This document shows, piece after piece, positions 5,093 to 13,496 of a stretch of DNA of 64,000 nt. The notes under the pieces were generated by a model. That model made no database searches. It was not told the origin of the DNA and saw only the letters and a program-made list of their open reading frames with translations. Location of the stretch: positions 19,838 to 83,837 of the forward strand of contig CAYRDC010000004.1 in assembly GCA_964422925.1 (NCBI GenBank), read 5' to 3'. The stretch is from an uncultured Chitinophagales bacterium (lineage in GTDB: Bacteria; Bacteroidota; Bacteroidia; Chitinophagales; S012-47). Numbering within the stretch: the stretch's first letter is position 1; each line of letters opens with the position of its first letter. The position numbers and the translations under genes are program-made.

Positions 5093-6229
5093 ATGCTGAA
5101 AAATACCCCAATATTGCTATTGGTATGGTTTTCGTTTATCTCGGTCGGACTCTCTGGACAGAATGATTGCGGAACAGAAATCACTAAAGCCGAATACGAA
5201 TACCTCAGCCACGACCGGGAAGCGCGGAATAATTACATTCCTTCCCGCTACAAAACCTTTGAATCGGTTCCCATAAAAGCACATGTTGTACGTCAATCAG
5301 ACGGAAGGGGTGGTGTAAGTCCCGAACTGCTAATCTATGCCTTACAGGATCTGAACAAGGCCTTCAGCAATTCAGGCATTCATTTCACCTATGTTGGTGA
5401 CATTGACTACATCGACAGCGACACTTACTATAAATTTTCAAAACAGGAAGAGGAAGCACTGGCCTCCGGCCATGACCGGAATGATGCCATCAATGTCTAT
5501 TTCCTGAACAGCATCACCAACAATTCCGGCATACCGATTTGCGGATACAGTTACATGCCGGGGGGTAAGAACCGGTTATTCCTTTCGGCTTCGTGTCTGG
5601 GCAACGGTACCACTTTTGCCCACGAAATGGGTCATTACCTGAGCCTGTACCATACGCATGGCGTAAGTTTCAATCCACCCGAACTGGCTGATGAGTCAAA
5701 TTGCAGCCTTGCCGGTGACGAGCTTTGTGATACACCGGCCGACCCGAACTTGTTGGGCAAGGTGGAAGGCTGTGAATATACAGGAAAAGATTTGGACGTG
5801 GAAGGGAATCCGTATCATCCCGATGTTGAAAATATTATGTCTTATGCCACACCCAGCTGCCGTGTTCATTTCAGCCAGGGACAGATCAACCGGATGCTTT
5901 TCAGCCTCCAGCATGACCGGGCTTTCCTGGCCTTCAGCGATACGGCCAGTTCCTTTGCCGATCAGTTAGCGCCCGGGCCGGTTACCCTGGAAGTTTATCC
6001 CAATCCCAGTCAGGGACAAATTAACATCCGGGTTAAAGAAGAAATATTCAGCGATGCATACATCGCCATATACAATGTTTTTGGAAAGTTAGTGGATCAG
6101 CAGTTATTACCTCAACTGCCAGCCGGTGGAAGTATTCCGCTCGATCTATCAAGGTATGGTAAGGGTATCTATGTGGTTTATTTGAAAAACGGGAGTACGA
6201 CAGCTATGCAAAAAGTAATCTATCAGTAA
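5093..6229 (+). CDS. Secreted zinc metalloprotease (M43 pappalysin/cytophagalysin-like) with T9SS C-terminal sorting domain
   Basis: It has a signal peptide, the HEMGHYLSLYHTH zinc site (HExxHxxxxxH), and the C-terminal LEVYPNPSQGQINI...GIYVVYL type A sorting domain. Confidence 0.75.
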   Translation: MLKNTPILLLVWFSFISVGLSGQNDCGTEITKAEYEYLSHDREARNNYIPSRYKTFESVPIKAHVVRQSDGRGGVSPELLIYALQDLNKAFSNSGIHFTYVGDIDYIDSDTYYKFSKQEEEALASGHDRNDAINVYFLNSITNNSGIPICGYSYMPGGKNRLFLSASCLGNGTTFAHEMGHYLSLYHTHGVSFNPPELADESNCSLAGDELCDTPADPNLLGKVEGCEYTGKDLDVEGNPYHPDVENIMSYATPSCRVHFSQGQINRMLFSLQHDRAFLAFSDTASSFADQLAPGPVTLEVYPNPSQGQINIRVKEEIFSDAYIAIYNVFGKLVDQQLLPQLPAGGSIPLDLSRYGKGIYVVYLKNGSTTAMQKVIYQ

Positions 6230-6281
6230 AGAATTTTTCTGTTTCGTTCATTCCACCAATGGCAGTCTTTTCAAAAGGGAG

Positions 6282-6316
6282 GAAGGCAGGATCGAAAGGT
6301 CCTGCCTTCGTTTTTT
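6282..6316 (+). terminator. Rho-independent terminator
   Basis: The stem pairs gaaggcagga (6282-6291) with tcctgccttc (6300-6309) around a GAAA-containing loop. G plus T6 follows (6310-6316). Confidence 0.65.
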
Positions 6317-6515
6317 GAAAAAGATTGATTTGCTTCTTTCTATCTGTTTTGATATATTCGCATTTATTGGCGGATTCCTGTCCCGATACACCCGGAAAAG
6401 TTTCTATCTGCGATCATAGCAATCTGCTGTCCTGAAACCGGGTATGATTTTTTTTCTGCATAATTCATGAAATAATTGTTCGGGTAAACCATTACCTAAC
6501 CAAAATATATTTAAA

Positions 6516-7467
6516 ATGAGAAAGATTCATTTTTGCGTATTACCCTTAGCCATAGCATTGGCAGCTTGTAGCTCAGGCATTAACGAAGTGGGCCCTCCGG
6601 AAAAAATCCGGGTGGAATCAACGCCTGAGCGACTGGCCCGCGGAGAATATCTGGCCAATCATGTCACATTATGTACCGATTGCCACTCAAAAAGGAATCC
6701 CGAAATATTTGCCCTACCGGTCGTTCCCGGCACGGAAGGTATGGGAGGTGAACACCACGGCAAAGAAATGGGTTTGCCGGGCGATGTGTATGTAGACAAC
6801 ATTACACCGGCTGCTTTAGGCGACTGGACAGACGGGGAACTGATCCGGGACATTACCTGTGGGGTTAGTAAAAATGATAAACCTCTTTTCCCCTTTATGC
6901 CATATTTAGCTTATGGCAAACTGACCAGGGAAGATCTGTATTCCATTGTGGCTTACATCCGAACATTAAAGCCTATCGAAAACAATGTGCCGGAAACTAA
7001 AATAAAATTCCCCGTGAGTATGTTCATGAAAAGCATGCCTCAACCTGCAGATTACACTCCCTCGGTAGATAAAAACAACGCTGTGGAATATGGTAAATAT
7101 CTCACTACCATCGCTTCCTGCAAGGATTGCCATACGCCATTCAAGAAAGGCAAGTATATAGAAGAAGAAGCTTTCTCTGGCGGCCAGGAATTTCCATTAC
7201 GGGGTGGTGCTGTTGTACGGTCAGCTAACATAACCCCCAGATCCTGAAACAGGTTTGGGAATGGGAAGAAAATCATTCATTGAAAAATTTAAAAAATTTG
7301 CCGATCCCGATTATAAAATGGAAAAAGTGGCTCCCGGGGAATTCAACACGTATATGCCCTGGCGGGCTTATGCGGGAATGACGGAAGAAGACCTCGGAGC
7401 TATTTATGACTATCTGCAAACCATCAAGCCGGTTTACAAGCAAGTAACCATATTTGAACACAAGTAG
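6516..7467 (+). pseudogene. Diheme c-type cytochrome lipoprotein, interrupted by a +1 frameshift in a C5 run
   Basis: There are two CxxCH sites (CTDCH, CKDCH) and the signal LAIALAAC. Frame 0 stops at 7245-7247 just after ANITP. The sequence continues in frame +1 from 7234 as PPDPETGLG...MPWRAYAGMTEEDL, so the two ORFs (6516-7247 and 7255-7467) are halves of one gene. Confidence 0.7.
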
Positions 7468-7702
7468 TCAGGTCCCTACTTCCCCTGCTATTGATAGTAC
7501 ATTCTAATACCAGGTGTGTTACGCAAATATATTCACTGTAACACATCTCCCCATGGTGCGGTTTCGCCCTGAAAAGCCGGAACGCGGTCGGCATAGGTTT
7601 GCCATCTGGACCTTTGCCAACCTGGCACCCCGTTCGCTGGCCCACCACCGGTGGTACCACCGGCATTTTTCGGATTACCCATATAGAAAAGCATTGATAC
7701 CC

Positions 7703-7711
7703 TTTATACTC
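7703..7711 (+). repeat. Left copy of the 9-bp direct repeat TTTATACTC
   Basis: This is an exact 9-mer, repeated at 9998-10006 on the other side of the AT-rich islet. Confidence 0.8.
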
Positions 7712-7788
7712 TAGAATCACATATTTTACCTTTTATTCCATAATTATATCTCCTAAAAAACTGTTATTAGGTAGTTTATATATTATTA

Positions 7789-7796
7789 GGGGGGGG
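7789..7796 (+). repeat. Homopolymeric G8 tract
   Basis: gggggggg sits in an otherwise very AT-rich stretch, about 100 nt upstream of the first islet ORF. Confidence 0.9.
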
Positions 7797-7899
7797 TATG
7801 CTTATCACTTTTCCCGGGTTTTTGTTACAAAGACTCTAAATACCAGAACATAATATTGAATTCGTAAACACTTCATTTTGAAACCAAAAATTTCTAAAA

Positions 7900-8394
7900 A
7901 TGTCAAAAACAATCATTTATTTTGCGGCAACCATTTTACTAATGGTATCTTGCAATAAAGTCGAAAAAGATTTCAAAAGTGTTATACTAAACAAAAATCA
8001 GATTCATTCAAAACAGTCTAGTGCAAGTCTAACTTTTGTAATTCTCAACTATGACCCCGATACTGGTGAACCAATATGTGATTGTTTACCACCAGCATGT
8101 ACCTGCATTAAAGAAGTTGTTATTACTGCAGATAAAAATGTTGCTTATAATCAATTCAAGAATTCCGTAAACAACGCCACTAGCAGTTTCTTTACTAATG
8201 GACCATGGAATACCTTATGGCCAAATTTAACTTCTGACGACCTTGCGATTTTGAGGGATACATCCAATACCATTCATTCGTATTTAAATAATGATAGCAC
8301 TATATATTATATTACAGTCCCTAATAATTATGCCTTTGATATCAATAATTTTAATCCGAACGATGCGTTATTTGTATTACCTGTAATTGAATAA
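7900..8394 (+). CDS. Hypothetical lipoprotein (islet ORF A)
   Basis: The signal/lipobox is MSKTIIYFAATILLMVSC. There is a Cys patch, CDCLPPACTC. 164 aa, Asn-rich, with no recognised motif. Confidence 0.6.
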   Translation: MSKTIIYFAATILLMVSCNKVEKDFKSVILNKNQIHSKQSSASLTFVILNYDPDTGEPICDCLPPACTCIKEVVITADKNVAYNQFKNSVNNATSSFFTNGPWNTLWPNLTSDDLAILRDTSNTIHSYLNNDSTIYYITVPNNYAFDINNFNPNDALFVLPVIE

Positions 8395-8408
8395 TCTGTA
8401 CCCAGTTG

Positions 8409-9539
8409 ATGCGTAAACTAATATACTTGCAGGCTATCGCTTTCTTTTTGATATTACAAAGTTGTTTTAGCCATGAGGAATCTGAAAGTTCAAATTTGAT
8501 ATTTAAGTCAGTACTTGATACAATATTATCGATTAGCCCAGAGGATATTATCAGCAGTTACTGCTATTATACAGATTCATCTTCCATTGCTTATTATCAT
8601 AATGGTCTAATTGTTAACAAAAATGTTATAACAAAAAGGAAGAGTACCACCAATATTGAGAAAATCATAACGGAAAACAATATTTATATTTCTAAAATCG
8701 CAAACCGGCAGATATTTAATTCAGACTCAACCCTTCTACTTCTCGATGATATTTCTGGTATATTCTATCTTGCATCCAATAATCCTTTATTAAATTCTGA
8801 TACTCTCATTCACAAATTGACAAATACTAAGTTTCTCTTCTTTAACAACGCGTTTCAACCTCTACTTTACAAAAATGGTAAACTATTTTTATCATGCATT
8901 TTAAAAGATAAAAACCTTATATACCCAGATGATAGGATTGCAATTTTCGAAAGCTCAACAAACGTATGCATTGATTTTCTCCATGACACTATTTTTTACT
9001 ATAAAATCCCTTTCCCAAAAATTTATTACTCAAAGGCAAATTACAACTTTAAGTACCCATTCATCTATACTGATTCAGCCGGTAATATCTATTATTCACT
9101 AAGCCTTTGTGATTCAATTATTACTTTCAATGTTGCAGACAATAGTTACCGGTTCGTAAATATCGCTGCTAAACAAAAACCCAAACATTTTATAAATAAA
9201 CCAGACAGTATTTTTAACATTAAGTATTCCATTCATTCACAACTAAGAGATGAAGGCTATGGACTGATTGCTTTTGACCCTTATAGGTCTTTTTGGTATA
9301 GAATTGTGACATATAAATACAATAATCTAAAAAGAAAAGACCCAAACGTATTTTACAAACCATGGCATTTAATAATTTGCAACCAACAATTTGATAAATT
9401 GGACGAGATCAACTTTTCAGGAGAGTATTACCCAAATAATTTCCTAATTACTCCAAAAGGTTTGATTTTCTTTCGAAAAATGAAAATTGACGGGAAGAGT
9501 AATGTGTTGCTTGAAATGTACCAATATGCCAAAAAATAA
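8409..9539 (+). CDS. Hypothetical lipoprotein, possibly DUF4221 / six-bladed beta-propeller-like (islet ORF B)
   Basis: The ATG at 8409 gives MRKLIYLQAIAFFLILQSC. It is 376 aa and rich in Asn/Tyr/Ile beta-strand-like segments. The family assignment rests on size and sequence texture only. Confidence 0.55.
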   Translation: MRKLIYLQAIAFFLILQSCFSHEESESSNLIFKSVLDTILSISPEDIISSYCYYTDSSSIAYYHNGLIVNKNVITKRKSTTNIEKIITENNIYISKIANRQIFNSDSTLLLLDDISGIFYLASNNPLLNSDTLIHKLTNTKFLFFNNAFQPLLYKNGKLFLSCILKDKNLIYPDDRIAIFESSTNVCIDFLHDTIFYYKIPFPKIYYSKANYNFKYPFIYTDSAGNIYYSLSLCDSIITFNVADNSYRFVNIAAKQKPKHFINKPDSIFNIKYSIHSQLRDEGYGLIAFDPYRSFWYRIVTYKYNNLKRKDPNVFYKPWHLIICNQQFDKLDEINFSGEYYPNNFLITPKGLIFFRKMKIDGKSNVLLEMYQYAKK

Positions 9540-9987
9540 CTTTTTTATAACACTTATTGTCCTCTTAGCGATTTTTTTTGCTTGTAACCAGAAAAATGAT
9601 CGCAACCCAATTAACACATATCTGAAAGATATACTCAATCTAAACCCGAAAAATAACTCATTATATATTTTCGCTCCATCGGTTTCCTGCAAGGGCTGCG
9701 TAAGTATATCACTTAATGAGATTAATGAAAAAGTAGCAGATGATTTGATAAGTAAAATCATTTTCATTACAACTGATACCTTATTGTTTCCAAAAACACT
9801 TCTTCAAAAATCAAAGGTCATTTTAGACACGACACATTACATGGATAGATTAGACGTAAATCTCCCAATTAACAATTTGACACTTTATTATATTGACTCA
9901 TCTGGCAAGGATACAATTATTACATCAAATATTAAAAACAAAACTGATTTTCCAAGTTTAATACGTAATTTTCTACCCAAGAATTAA
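9526..9987 (+). CDS. Thioredoxin-fold-like lipoprotein with a CxxC motif (islet ORF C)
   Basis: The ATG at 9526 gives MPKNNFFITLIVLLAIFFAC. SLYIFAPSVSCKGCV looks like a beta-strand followed by CxxC, and LTLYYIDSSGKD resembles the late thioredoxin-fold strands. It overlaps ORF B by 14 nt. Confidence 0.5.
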   Translation: MPKNNFFITLIVLLAIFFACNQKNDRNPINTYLKDILNLNPKNNSLYIFAPSVSCKGCVSISLNEINEKVADDLISKIIFITTDTLLFPKTLLQKSKVILDTTHYMDRLDVNLPINNLTLYYIDSSGKDTIITSNIKNKTDFPSLIRNFLPKN

Positions 9988-9994
9988 CGAGCAA

Positions 9995-10675
9995 TTATTT
10001 ATACTCATTTAAATTTTCTTTCAGCGCGTTGATTTCTTTTTCGCGCTCTGACAGCTCCTTCTTTTTCTTTTTTTGCTGTTCGTTGTTTTCTTTTAGGTCT
10101 TTTTCTGCCTGCTCAATGCTTTCTTTCCATTTTTTGATATTGTTTTCAAGTGATTTTTGTTCTTTCTCGAATTTGTCAAGCTCGTTTGAGAGGCGCTGAA
10201 ATTCTTTTTGCATTGTTTCCAGCTGTACATTGATAACGGCCCGGGCCTGCTGCACCGCGAAATCGCGAAGCATGTTGTTGGCGGCTTCCCAGGCGTCCGG
10301 ATGGTAAGCCCGGTTCAGATAGGCGCCTCCGAGGTCGAAATAAACGGTCATTTCCACGCCATCTTTTCCGTCCTCGATCTGTGCGTACACATCCACGGTG
10401 TTGGCGCTTAAGGAAGGCAATATGAGGTCATCGCCAAAAAGCTCTTTTTTCACATTGTCTGGTTTGCCCCCATGGTCCTTGATCCATTTCTTCCATTGTT
10501 TGCTCACATCCCTGTCGGAGGCCCCGGGAATGAACACCCGCAGGCCGTACTGCTTGCCCCGGCTCATTTTTTCCTGCACCTGGGTTATTTCAATGCCCTG
10601 TGCGGCAGCCGGCACGCTGTACAGTCCCGCTGCCAGGAAAAGGATGATGAGGCCAAGGGTTTTCATGCATTTCAT
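9995..10675 (-). CDS. Secreted protein with a Lys/Glu-rich C-terminal coiled coil (hypothetical)
   Basis: The ATG at 10675 gives MKCMKTLGLIILFLAAGLYSVPAAAQG. The C-terminal ~80 aa show heptad-like K/E repeats. The longer ORF (to 10735) would overlap the polA stop. Confidence 0.6.
   Translation of the reverse strand: MKCMKTLGLIILFLAAGLYSVPAAAQGIEITQVQEKMSRGKQYGLRVFIPGASDRDVSKQWKKWIKDHGGKPDNVKKELFGDDLILPSLSANTVDVYAQIEDGKDGVEMTVYFDLGGAYLNRAYHPDAWEAANNMLRDFAVQQARAVINVQLETMQKEFQRLSNELDKFEKEQKSLENNIKKWKESIEQAEKDLKENNEQQKKKKKELSEREKEINALKENLNEYK
9998..10006 (+). repeat. Right copy of the 9-bp direct repeat TTTATACTC
   Basis: It exactly matches 7703-7711. It lies in the last three sense codons (EYK) of the minus-strand gene 9995-10675. 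Confidence 0.8.
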
Positions 10676-10697
10676 AGTCGAAGGGTTTGCGTTTTGA

Positions 10698-13496
10698 TCA
10701 ATGGGCAGCCAGCCAGTTGGCCCCGCGTCCCACATCGGCCACCAGGGGCACTTTCAGCTCCACGGCCTTTTCCATGCTTTCGCGGATGAGTGGCACGAGT
10801 TCTTCGGTTTCTTCCTTCACTGCATCGAACACCAATTCGTCATGCACCTGCATGGTCATCACGGAGCGCAGGCCGCGTTTCCGGATTTCCTCCTGCAGCC
10901 TGATCATGGCCACCTTGATGATATCGGCCGCGGTGCCCTGTATGGGAGTGTTGATGGCATTGCGCTCGGCAAAGCCGCGCACGGTGGCATTCTTTGCGTT
11001 GATGTCGGGCAGGTAGCGCCTGCGCCCGAGCAGGGTGGTCACGTAGCCTTTTTCCTTTGCCTGGGCAATGGAGCGGTCCATGTACTGCCTGATGCCCGGG
11101 TATTTTTCAAAATAGGCTTTGATGATGCCGGCAGCTTCTTCGCGCGGAATGCCCAGCCGCTGTCCCAGCCCGTAGGCCGAAATGCCGTAGGCTATCCCGA
11201 AGTTCACCATCTTGGCCCGCCTGCGCATTTCGGGGGTTACCTCCTCGAGGGGCACGTCAAACACCTGTGAGGCCGTGGCTGCGTGAATGTCCAGCCCCTG
11301 GCGGAACGAACGGATCATGTTTTCATCCCCGCTCAGCGAGGCAATGATGCGCAGCTCAATCTGGCTGTAATCGGCCGAGATGATGACATGCTGCTCATCG
11401 GCCGGGATGAAGGCCTTGCGGATTTCCCGCCCCTTGTCGGTGCGGATGGGGATGTTCTGCAGGTTGGGGTTGGACGAGCTCAGGCGCCCGGTTACGGCCA
11501 CCGTCTGGCTGTAATGGGTGTGCACGCGGCCGGTTTTCGGATTCACCAACCCCGGCAGGGCATCCACGTAAGTGCTTTTCAGCTTGGTAAGCTCCCGGTA
11601 TTCCAGCACGAGCCGGGCAATGGGATATTTCGAAGCCAGCCGGGTGAGCACTTCCTCGTTGGTCGAGAACTGCCCCGTCCGGGTCTTGCGCCCCTCGTAG
11701 GGTATTTCCAGCTTGCGGAACAGCACCTCCGAAAGCTGCTTGGGCGAGTCGATGTTGAACGAAACCCCCGCGGCTTCGTGGATCTCGCGGGTAAGCCGGA
11801 TGATTTCCTGCTGCAGCTCCGCGGAATACCGGTTCAGGAACTCCGCATCGAGGGCTACCCCGGCATATTCCATGTCGACCAGCACGCCCATGAGCGGGAT
11901 TTCCACCTCGTAATACAGTTTTTCGAAATCGTGCTCCTTCAGCAGGGGCTCGAATTTCTGGCGCAGCTGCAGGGTGATGTCAGCGTCCTCGGCTGCGTAT
12001 TCCTTGATGACGTCAACGGGCACCTGGCGCATGGAACCCTGGTGCACCCCCCTTTTCCCGATCAGGCTTTCGATGCTTACGGGGCGGTAATTGAGGTAGG
12101 CTTCCGCCAGGTAATCCATGTTGTGTTTTCTTTCCGGCTCCAGCAGGAAATGGGCGATCAGGGTATCGAACATCGGTCCGCGGATTTCCACGCCATGGCA
12201 TTTCAACACCAGCAGATCGTATTTCAGGTTCTGGCCGGTTTTGCCGATGGCCGGGTCTTCGAGCACGGGGACAAACTCCTGCAGCAGGGCCCGCGTGGCT
12301 TCCGGGTTCTCGGGGCAGGGAACATACCAGGCTTCGCCCGGCTCTACGCAGAACGAAAGGCCCACCAGTTCGGCCCGCATGGGATCCAGCCCCGTGGTTT
12401 CCGTGTCGAGGCTGAACGAACCGGCCTGCTCCAGCACGCGGAGCAGCGCCTGCCGGGCTTCGCGGGTATCGGCCAGGTGGTATTCATGAGGGGTGTTTTC
12501 CAGGGTTCGCGTTCCGGCAGGCAGGGATTCCCGGACAGTGCTTCTGGCGGATAAACCGGCATCTTCAGCGCCAAACAGGGTCATCTGGCTGCCGGCAGGC
12601 CGGCCCAGTTCAATTTTGAAATCCTCACCCAGGATACGTCTGCCCAGGGTGCGGAACTCCAGCTCGGAAAACAATTCAGCCAGCTTTTCGCGGTCGGGCT
12701 CACTGACCCGCAAGGCCTTCACGTTATAGTCCACCGGCACATCGGTGATAATCGTGGCCAGCTGCTTCGAAAGGATGGCCTGTTCGCGGTGCTCCTCGAT
12801 GCGTTCCTTCAGCTTCCCCTTCAGCTTGTCGGTGTTTTCAAGCAGGTTTTCCAGCGAGCCGAATTCCTTCATGAGCTTCACGGCTGTCTTTTCGCCCACC
12901 CCCGGCACCCCGGGAATGTTGTCTACCTTGTCGCCCATCAGCCCGAGGATGTCAATCACCTGCGAAACGTCTTTGATGTCCCAGCGGGCCAGCACTTCCG
13001 GTATGCCCATGGTTTCATAGCCTCCGTTCCGGATCAGGGGCTTGTAAATGAAAATGTTTTCGGTAACCAGTTGCCCGAAATCCTTGTCAGGGGTTACCAT
13101 GTACACGGTGAACCCGTCCTTTTCGGCCTTTCGGGCAATGGTGCCGATGATGTCATCGGCTTCGTAGCCGTCCTTTTCCAGCACGGGAATGTTGAAGGCC
13201 CGGGTGATTTCCTTGATATACGGCACCGATTCAATGATGTCCTCGGGCGTTTCCTCCCGGTTGGCCTTGTAATCGGCAAAAGCGGCTTCCCTTTCGGTGG
13301 GCGCGTGGGTGTCGAAGGCCACGGCTATGTGGGTGGGTTTTTCGTTTTCCAGGATATCGTGCAAAGTAGAGACAAAGCCTCTTATGGCCGAAGTGTTCAT
13401 GCCCTTGCTGTTGATGAGCGGGCGCTGGATAAAGGCAAAATACGCCCGGTAAATAAGGGCCATGGCATCAATCAGGAACAGCTTTTTTTCCTCCAT
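10698..13496 (-). CDS. polA: DNA polymerase I
   Basis: 932 aa with a 5'-3' exonuclease N-terminus and a 3'-5' exonuclease domain. Polymerase motif A is DYSQIELR, motif B is RRRAKMVNFGIAYG and motif C is QVHDE. Confidence 0.97.
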   Translation of the reverse strand: MEEKKLFLIDAMALIYRAYFAFIQRPLINSKGMNTSAIRGFVSTLHDILENEKPTHIAVAFDTHAPTEREAAFADYKANREETPEDIIESVPYIKEITRAFNIPVLEKDGYEADDIIGTIARKAEKDGFTVYMVTPDKDFGQLVTENIFIYKPLIRNGGYETMGIPEVLARWDIKDVSQVIDILGLMGDKVDNIPGVPGVGEKTAVKLMKEFGSLENLLENTDKLKGKLKERIEEHREQAILSKQLATIITDVPVDYNVKALRVSEPDREKLAELFSELEFRTLGRRILGEDFKIELGRPAGSQMTLFGAEDAGLSARSTVRESLPAGTRTLENTPHEYHLADTREARQALLRVLEQAGSFSLDTETTGLDPMRAELVGLSFCVEPGEAWYVPCPENPEATRALLQEFVPVLEDPAIGKTGQNLKYDLLVLKCHGVEIRGPMFDTLIAHFLLEPERKHNMDYLAEAYLNYRPVSIESLIGKRGVHQGSMRQVPVDVIKEYAAEDADITLQLRQKFEPLLKEHDFEKLYYEVEIPLMGVLVDMEYAGVALDAEFLNRYSAELQQEIIRLTREIHEAAGVSFNIDSPKQLSEVLFRKLEIPYEGRKTRTGQFSTNEEVLTRLASKYPIARLVLEYRELTKLKSTYVDALPGLVNPKTGRVHTHYSQTVAVTGRLSSSNPNLQNIPIRTDKGREIRKAFIPADEQHVIISADYSQIELRIIASLSGDENMIRSFRQGLDIHAATASQVFDVPLEEVTPEMRRRAKMVNFGIAYGISAYGLGQRLGIPREEAAGIIKAYFEKYPGIRQYMDRSIAQAKEKGYVTTLLGRRRYLPDINAKNATVRGFAERNAINTPIQGTAADIIKVAMIRLQEEIRKRGLRSVMTMQVHDELVFDAVKEETEELVPLIRESMEKAVELKVPLVADVGRGANWLAAH

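Follow-up and report, generated by a model that had tools for sequence, protein, structure and literature searches.

We analysed a 64,000-nucleotide (nt) stretch of DNA from an uncultured Chitinophagales bacterium (GCA_964422925.1, contig CAYRDC010000004.1, positions 19,838–83,837, forward strand), hereafter the window, and focused on an AT-rich islet in it that carries three lipoprotein genes, here called open reading frames (ORFs) A, B and C. The islet is a very divergent copy of a recurring, uncharacterised three-gene cassette of Bacteroidota, and its variant feature is a lipoprotein-sized protein with a cysteine (Cys) patch that replaces the short peptide found elsewhere. As to how the cassette works, we propose a scheme to which we give about an even chance: the islet would be a horizontally acquired accessory cassette forming a single operon for a Cys-rich exported protein (A), a DUF4221 propeller (B) and a TlpA-like CxxC lipoprotein (C), with C acting on the disulfides of A.

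The three genes lie on the + strand at 7900–8394 (A), 8409–9539 (B) and 9526–9987 (C), with a 14-nt gap between A and B and a 14-nt overlap between B and C, in full agreement with an earlier note on this DNA (the original prediction). ORFs of these lengths are not expected by chance in DNA of 30% G+C. ORF B starts with ATG, with a TTG at 8406, and for ORF C the public annotation uses an alternative ATG at 9502, giving 161 amino acids (aa); the stop of C lies 7 nt from that of a convergent coiled-coil gene. All three products begin with lipobox-type signal peptides (LLMVSC in A, LILQSC in B, IFFAC in C), and the lipobox-like Cys already recognised in each of them proved to be conserved in each family alignment (C18, C19 and C20). 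Homology was searched in a word-indexed database of 5.8e9 clusters, supplemented for ORF B by an exhaustive HMMER scan. In that database A, B and C are all singleton clusters, the searches returning only the proteins themselves, and they occur only in assemblies of the source organism (the NCBI/JGI record and two sequencing runs). Exact-protein look-ups likewise returned only the source organism from two runs, with no strain-level variants. PADLOC and PHROGs models gave no defence or phage family match, the sole PHROG match (to A, 0.024) being at chance level. None of the three proteins falls into a characterised family, so the original prediction, which could tie none of them to a characterised activity, stands on this point.

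ORF B (8409–9539, + strand) encodes a 376-aa lipoprotein with its lipobox Cys19 at 8463–8465, and homologues, profile and structural model all identify it as a divergent DUF4221 beta-propeller, DUF4221 being one of the families suggested in the original prediction. The HMMER scan recovered 46 remote relatives close to ORF B in length, the top match among them having 28% identity (E 1.4e-16), and 34 of 35 aligned homologues match the DUF4221 model PF13970 (best E 3e-37). ORF B itself reaches 21.7 bits against PF13970, slightly below the Pfam cut-off of 23.4, with an E-value of 1.7e-4 and over residues 145–333 only. Searched against the PDB, the family profile (built on alignment A1) matched 3s9j, described as a ‘member of DUF4221 family’ (BVU_1028, Bacteroides vulgatus), with E 3.7e-52. 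The same structure was the top Foldseek match (E 3.5e-15, TM 0.69/0.71) of an AlphaFold model of B made from the homologue alignment (pLDDT 80.9, pTM 0.81; the N-terminal third is poorly modelled), and the remaining listed matches were generic beta-propellers with query-normalised TM values of 0.27–0.45. ORF B also fits the DUF4221 size range (~370–390 aa) and C-terminal motif (Y..DPYR..YYR, KPW..I), the family motif reading FDPYRSFWYRIV at residues 289–300 (9273–9308, + strand). Other residues conserved across the family are D106, P203, Y284, D290, Y297, R298, E333 and G351; no Cys other than the lipobox C19 is kept in at least 90% of the 36 aligned sequences. ORF B is a DUF4221 member by homology and fold, sub-threshold for the Pfam model. 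Literature searches, limited to an accessible collection of papers, found no functional work on DUF4221, NVEALA, DUF5128, DUF4934 or BVU_1028, and no mention of DUF4221.

ORF C (9526–9987, + strand) encodes a 153-aa lipoprotein (161 aa from the start at 9502) with its lipobox Cys20 at 9583–9585 and a CxxC motif, C55-K-G-C58, at 9688–9699. Both CxxC cysteines are the only invariant residues in 19 C-like sequences, C20 and one Asp being kept in at least 90% of them, and the motif is again invariant in 18 mature C-like domains. In 22 sequences it follows a hydrophobic strand (YIFAPSVS in ORF C), and the two residues inside it vary (KG, NS, SG and others). The best full-domain PDB match of the C profile is 3hcz, a ‘possible thiol-disulfide isomerase’, with an E-value of only 0.07–0.08; the alignment puts CxxC on CxxC and includes a Pro-containing loop. 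When the C family was compared by hhalign with an alignment of five TlpA-like PDB sequences, the probability was 79.8% (E 1.4e-5) over 97 columns with the CxxC aligned; comparisons with single sequences were weak (0.4% for E. coli thioredoxin, 25.6% for the 3hcz fragment). From these profile comparisons ORF C probably has a thioredoxin fold and appears to resemble a TlpA-type oxidoreductase, although ORF C itself belongs to no curated family. Several results weigh against this assignment: no Pfam or NCBIfam model, thioredoxin models included, reaches its threshold on ORF C, the sequence signals for the fold are themselves sub-threshold (PDB E 0.08), and the single-sequence AlphaFold model has a pLDDT of 38.6. 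The thioredoxin-like character claimed for C in the original prediction therefore gains from the invariant CxxC and the hhalign result but is not proven. Around its CxxC, the C profile also weakly matches metal-binding domains of copper ATPases in the PDB, which would allow a different reading, in which C is an HMA-like (GMxCxxC-type) metal-binding lipoprotein and the cassette handles metal. This is very improbable, since hhalign gives the HMA domain 3.6% over 21 columns, covering the motif only, against 79.8% over 97 columns for the TlpA-like alignment, and the C domain, at ~130 aa, is twice the size of an HMA domain; we rejected it. TlpA-like proteins were also sought among the fetched loci, and none was found.

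ORF A (7900–8394, + strand) encodes a predicted 164-aa lipoprotein with lipobox Cys18 at 7951–7953. The cysteine patch reported in it, CDCLPPACTC, is present at 8077–8106 and comprises C60, C62, C67 and C69. A had no Pfam (E ≤ 1), NCBIfam or PDB match, the last by profile search, and it is not an NVEALA protein, the PF14055 model giving no match. Its sole detectable homologue lies in one of the metagenome loci described below (L098, 1674–2150; 24% identity over 144 aa, E 3e-9). This homologue is also a lipoprotein and also sits upstream of a DUF4221 gene; C18 is conserved in both sequences, and the C62-x6-C69 spacing of A is kept (CLPPACTC in A, CFPGAHDC in the homologue).

Evidence that the islet is one copy of a recurring cassette comes from the surroundings of other DUF4221 genes. 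A metagenome scan with a DUF4221 alignment yielded 29 loci; the smaller alignment A2 was used, A1 being too diverse for a locus scan. With ORF C alone as query, seven homologues (E < 1e-3) were found among the 916 ORFs of the fetched loci. For six of them a DUF4221 gene is the immediate upstream neighbour; for the seventh (L088) one gene stands between the two, at L088 6762–8054, and encodes a Ser/Thr protein kinase that ends in a TonB_C domain. With a C-family profile, of the 31 non-redundant DUF4221 genes with enough sequence downstream, ~23 proved to be followed by a C-like gene, the two usually overlapping by 4 nt. In a control set of 80 PolA loci (1.5 Mb) the same profile gave only two marginal matches. 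The C-like domain also occurs in fusions, with a DUF5128/DUF4934 ‘6-bladed propeller’ in L083 (1776–3383) and, in L090 (3160–4503), with ~320 aa that have no Pfam match and are probably a propeller as well.

Upstream of the propeller, we scored ORFs on the same strand and no more than 400 nt away that encode a signal peptide and at least three Cys in the mature part. Such an ORF precedes 13 of 25 DUF4221 genes, compared with 4 of 573 control genes (Fisher p = 6.5e-17). In L093 two of them are Pfam NVEALA peptides (E 1.9e-12 and 7.1e-14) preceding a DUF4221 gene. Several of the scored ORFs share a pattern of four Cys in which the last loop, C-x6-C, is rich in Gly/Pro (CAGAHRDC, CSGAPNHC, CYGPESDC) and resembles the loop of A. 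A secreted four-Cys peptide family was seen directly upstream of DUF4221 genes at L085 7340–7582, L089 319–624, L087 6943–7155 and L090 1764–1985; its layout is a signal peptide followed by C-x14–20-C-x14–16-C-x6-C with a Gly/Pro-rich last loop, and these four peptides have no Pfam or NCBIfam match. The complete A–B–C trio in the gene order of the window was found in one other locus, L098. Two further arrangements were observed. The first 16,456 nt of a 388-kb metagenome contig (L110, 1–16456) hold at least nine tandem DUF4221 genes interleaved with genes for C-like CxxC lipoproteins and Cys-rich signal-peptide ORFs. In L099 (1853–3379, 5063–6589, 8623–9606), propeller lipoprotein genes alternate with two DUF6734 genes. 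A DDE_5 transposase gene comes after the DUF4221 gene of this locus, and no other mobility gene was seen adjoining any cassette.

These loci strengthen the suggestion that the trio forms a co-encoded system, through the conserved and often overlapping B–C pair, the upstream Cys-rich ORFs and the full trio in L098. As to whether the three genes travel together elsewhere, they do so in L098 and the B–C pair does in ~23 of 31 cases, and a Cys-rich upstream ORF accompanies 13 of 25 DUF4221 genes. Two points tell against the argument from gene order. The count of B–C adjacency is partly circular, because the C-family profile was derived from ORFs downstream of DUF4221 genes. ORF A, for its part, has a single homologue, and its tie to the short upstream peptides consists of position and the C-x6-C loop, which may partly be due to chance.

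The unequal evidence for the two links bears on an alternative in which B and C form the functional pair, a propeller (an enzyme or binding protein) with its dedicated reductant, and A is an unrelated neighbour. B–C pairing and fusions are far better supported than the link to A, and about half of the DUF4221 genes have no detectable upstream Cys-rich ORF. TlpA-type proteins are, moreover, usually reductants, serving the maturation of cytochromes or copper centres. On the other hand, the only conserved Cys of DUF4221 is that of the lipobox, hence B offers no obvious thiol substrate; the enrichment of Cys-rich exported ORFs upstream is very strong; and the order A–B–C is kept in L098 even at ~24% identity between the A proteins. 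We consider that A is unlikely to be a bystander and retain the proposal that C works on A.

The upstream peptides raise another possibility, that the cassette is a bacteriocin-like peptide-toxin module in which A (or a small peptide) is the effector, C the disulfide catalyst and B an immunity or export partner. These peptides are hypervariable, Cys-rich and signal-bearing, with NVEALA-family members among them; the tandem array in L110 and the accessory, AT-rich and patchily distributed character of the cassettes point the same way. There is also a precedent in the bacteroidetocin loci (class IIf bacteriocins), where a peptide with four Cys depends for its activity on a thiol oxidoreductase encoded alongside it (PMC6671954). 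Against it, A, a 164-aa lipoprotein, is no short peptide; toxin, defence and phage families gave no match; and the bacteroidetocin hallmarks (GG leader, C39 ABC exporter, five-transmembrane (5-TM) protein) were sought in the three ORFs of the islet without result, the flanks being the cytochrome c and coiled-coil genes. A toxin module is thus a minority possibility, at roughly one chance in four, and the broader scheme of a Cys-rich exported partner matured by C is preferred.

The islet stands out sharply in composition, confirming the AT-rich islet of the original prediction. Its G+C content is 30.5% at 7700–9994 compared with 49.9% in the remaining window, which corresponds to z = −6.1 relative to 2.3-kb windows outside it (mean 50.0%, standard deviation (sd) 3.2, minimum 45.1%). 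The tetranucleotide L1 distance from the islet to the rest is 0.67, other segments giving 0.22 ± 0.04 with a maximum of 0.40. G+C at third codon positions (GC3) is 0.26 in ORF A, 0.30 in ORF B and 0.29 in ORF C, against 0.57 ± 0.06 (minimum 0.43) in the 42 other long ORFs of the window; this shift shows that the deviation lies in codon choice and not in amino-acid content alone. In a 300-nt profile, G+C is 27–34% from ~7750 to 10150, with 51–61% in the right flank and 41–54% in the left.

Synteny was examined through PolA relatives among 185,579 species genomes, from which 80 loci were kept, the source genome not being among them. The best PolA relative, at 62% identity, is a Chitinophagales metagenome-assembled genome (L003), and it is the only syntenic relative found. 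It keeps the order LemA–PolA–M43 peptidase–NMO, with the PolA and M43 genes tail to tail and separated by a 61-nt spacer (5375–5435) that contains neither the islet nor any AT-rich stretch. In the window the M43–polA interval is 4.47 kb (6230–10697) and holds the split cytochrome c gene, the trio and the coiled-coil gene, all missing in L003; within it only the trio deviates in composition. The PolA/M43 intergenic site is a variable spot.

On composition and on absence from L003, the islet was likely acquired by horizontal transfer, the foreign origin that had been proposed for it. Several observations temper this conclusion. The synteny comparison depends on one distant relative. The islet surroundings hold no tRNA, Rfam match, meaningful flanking repeat, integrase or transposase, in line with the original prediction's finding of no mobility gene. 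In most of the other loci measured the cassettes, too, are richer in AT than the DNA around them, because of which low G+C may partly be a property of the family and not a sign of recent transfer; GC3 of DUF4221 modules lies below that of neighbouring genes in 10 of 12 other loci, so low G+C alone does not date a transfer. The lower GC3 of these cassettes fits a mobile accessory gene set. A viral-contig scan, a plasmid tblastn search and a phage blastn search of the islet were all negative, and together with the absence of tRNA, Rfam, repeat, PADLOC and PHROGs signals they leave an origin from a mobile element unsupported.

The same figures can be read as those of an old resident, whose low G+C would be an intrinsic bias of the family (Asn/Ile/Lys/Tyr-rich proteins, weak expression, relaxed codon selection). 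The low GC3 of the modules in the 10 other loci and the absence of a mobility gene, tRNA or flanking repeat agree with it, as does the flat G+C of ~0.3 at first, second and third codon positions, where genes newly imported from a genome of 30% G+C would be expected to have a very low GC3. It has to contend, though, with a GC3, largely independent of amino-acid content, that is 4.5 sd below all 42 other long ORFs, with the missing segment at the syntenic L003 site, and with three single-member protein clusters confined to assemblies of the source organism. Long residence therefore seems to us improbable, perhaps a one-in-five prospect, next to acquisition of the islet.

The two edges of the islet differ. 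On the left, a terminator-like hairpin, CCGGTGGTACCACCGG, with a T-rich tail lies at 7648–7673 on the + strand, downstream of the split cytochrome c gene; it is a consensus match from a pattern scan, and promoter and terminator scans gave matches at chance level. The hairpin itself (7648–7663) directly precedes the compositional drop, G+C falling from 45% to 29% just past it, and marks the end of native-composition DNA to the left of the islet. On the right, where the islet had been said to end at 9994, low G+C continues for ~150 nt beyond this point. It reaches into the Lys/Glu-rich 3′ part of the coiled-coil gene, which runs convergently, and composition therefore draws no clean boundary on this side.

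Between the left edge and ORF A lies an AT-rich non-coding leader (7683–7899, + strand), the presumed promoter region. The exact Bacteroidota −7 motif (TAnnTTTG) is absent from the + strand at 7700–7899, for which reason a cassette promoter here is inferred only. The leader holds a run of eight G at 7789–7796, ~100 nt upstream of ORF A and inside DNA of 30% G+C; its length is identical in the one other covering assembly (L001, an independent Logan assembly). Strand slippage at this tract might mediate phase variation in the promoter region.

Of the flanking genes, the di-haem cytochrome c gene on the left is split into two frames (6516–7247 and 7255–7467), the second of which encodes the C-terminal end of the second haem domain. 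The Logan assembly shows the identical split, which makes the gene either a pseudogene or a shared assembly error. The coiled-coil gene on the right (9995–10735, − strand) encodes a signal peptide and a long Lys/Glu-rich coiled-coil tail and has a native-like GC3 of 0.60. Its protein is absent in L003, and one weak homologue only was found (23% identity, L055).

Taken as a working cassette, the islet would operate as follows. A, B and C would be co-transcribed from the AT-rich leader and translationally coupled through the 14-nt gap and the 14-nt overlap. All three products would be exported and, judging from their lipoboxes, lipid-anchored in the envelope. There the CxxC of C may form or isomerise one or more disulfides of the Cys patch of A, notably in the C62-x6-C69 loop. 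A is the proposed substrate because a CxxC partner needs a thiol substrate, and B offers no conserved Cys where the co-encoded upstream product does; the role of C on A follows from the conserved gene order, the existence of fusions and the precedent of the bacteroidetocin loci. B might bind folded A as a partner, scaffold or immunity protein, or modify it, and the output might be a niche-specific envelope or interbacterial function such as interbacterial antagonism, both of these last steps being speculative.

The DUF4221 family and the ‘6-bladed propeller’ families that are its sisters are large, rich in paralogues and wholly uncharacterised in Bacteroidota, a phylum important in gut, soil and water. 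Such propellers can now be seen to belong to a cassette of three parts, the other two being a dedicated thioredoxin-like lipoprotein with a CxxC, in some cases fused to the propeller, and a Cys-rich product for export. This provides a testable hypothesis for these DUF families, namely disulfide-dependent maturation of a co-encoded partner. The C family would add a thioredoxin-like family that matches no Pfam or NCBIfam model above threshold, and the source genome would offer a small, clean example of gene gain without visible mobility machinery. A bolder idea, which we consider unlikely, is that the cassette is an undescribed Bacteroidota envelope system in which the propeller works in complex with either a hypervariable disulfide-loop effector or a small subunit bearing a cofactor, and the dedicated oxidoreductase locks this partner. 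If true, it would define a new class of peptide effector or partner system or, on the pattern of methylamine dehydrogenase, an envelope enzyme of two subunits; the window copy, with its lipoprotein-sized A, would be a distinct sub-type.

The closest known relatives of the cassette can be compared part by part. With DUF4221 proteins (PF13970, 3s9j), ORF B shares its length, lipoprotein signal, propeller fold and a YDPYR..YYR-type motif; it differs in being at most 28% identical to any relative found and in falling under the Pfam gathering score. The Bacteroidales clusters of NVEALA and ‘6-bladed beta-propeller’ genes (DUF5128, DUF4934) likewise place a small exported Cys peptide upstream of a propeller lipoprotein, and DUF5128 propellers share cassettes with DUF4221-type genes in L083 and L105. 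These clusters are annotated but unstudied, and the product of ORF A is not an NVEALA protein but a 164-aa lipoprotein.

ORF C has in common with the TlpA/ResA/DsbE type (3hcz, 2lrn, 3gl3, 3ewl, 3eur) a CxxC after a hydrophobic strand and a predicted membrane anchor, and its profile can be aligned with them, sub-threshold in the PDB search, over the whole domain including the Pro loop. In the C family, however, the interior of the CxxC is variable and not the usual xPC, and its genes are systematically coupled to propeller genes. In the methylamine dehydrogenase gene set, MauB is the propeller heavy subunit, MauA the disulfide-rich light subunit and MauD a thioredoxin-like maturation factor. 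The architecture of this set, and also that of AssT–DsbL/DsbI of E. coli, is like that of the cassette by analogy only. No methylamine dehydrogenase entry occurs among the 50 listed Foldseek matches of B, and there is no sign of a quinone cofactor or of MauE/MauG-like genes.

The bacteroidetocin loci lack a propeller and encode a 5-TM protein and a C39 ABC exporter besides a peptide with a GG leader, whereas the islet has Sec/lipoprotein signals and a propeller and no exporter. Bacteroides lack a general disulfide-forming machinery, hence the need for a dedicated oxidoreductase in these loci (PMC6671954). In both the bacteroidetocin loci and the cassette, a Cys-rich exported product is encoded together with a dedicated thiol oxidoreductase gene, the role of C in the cassette being a predicted one.

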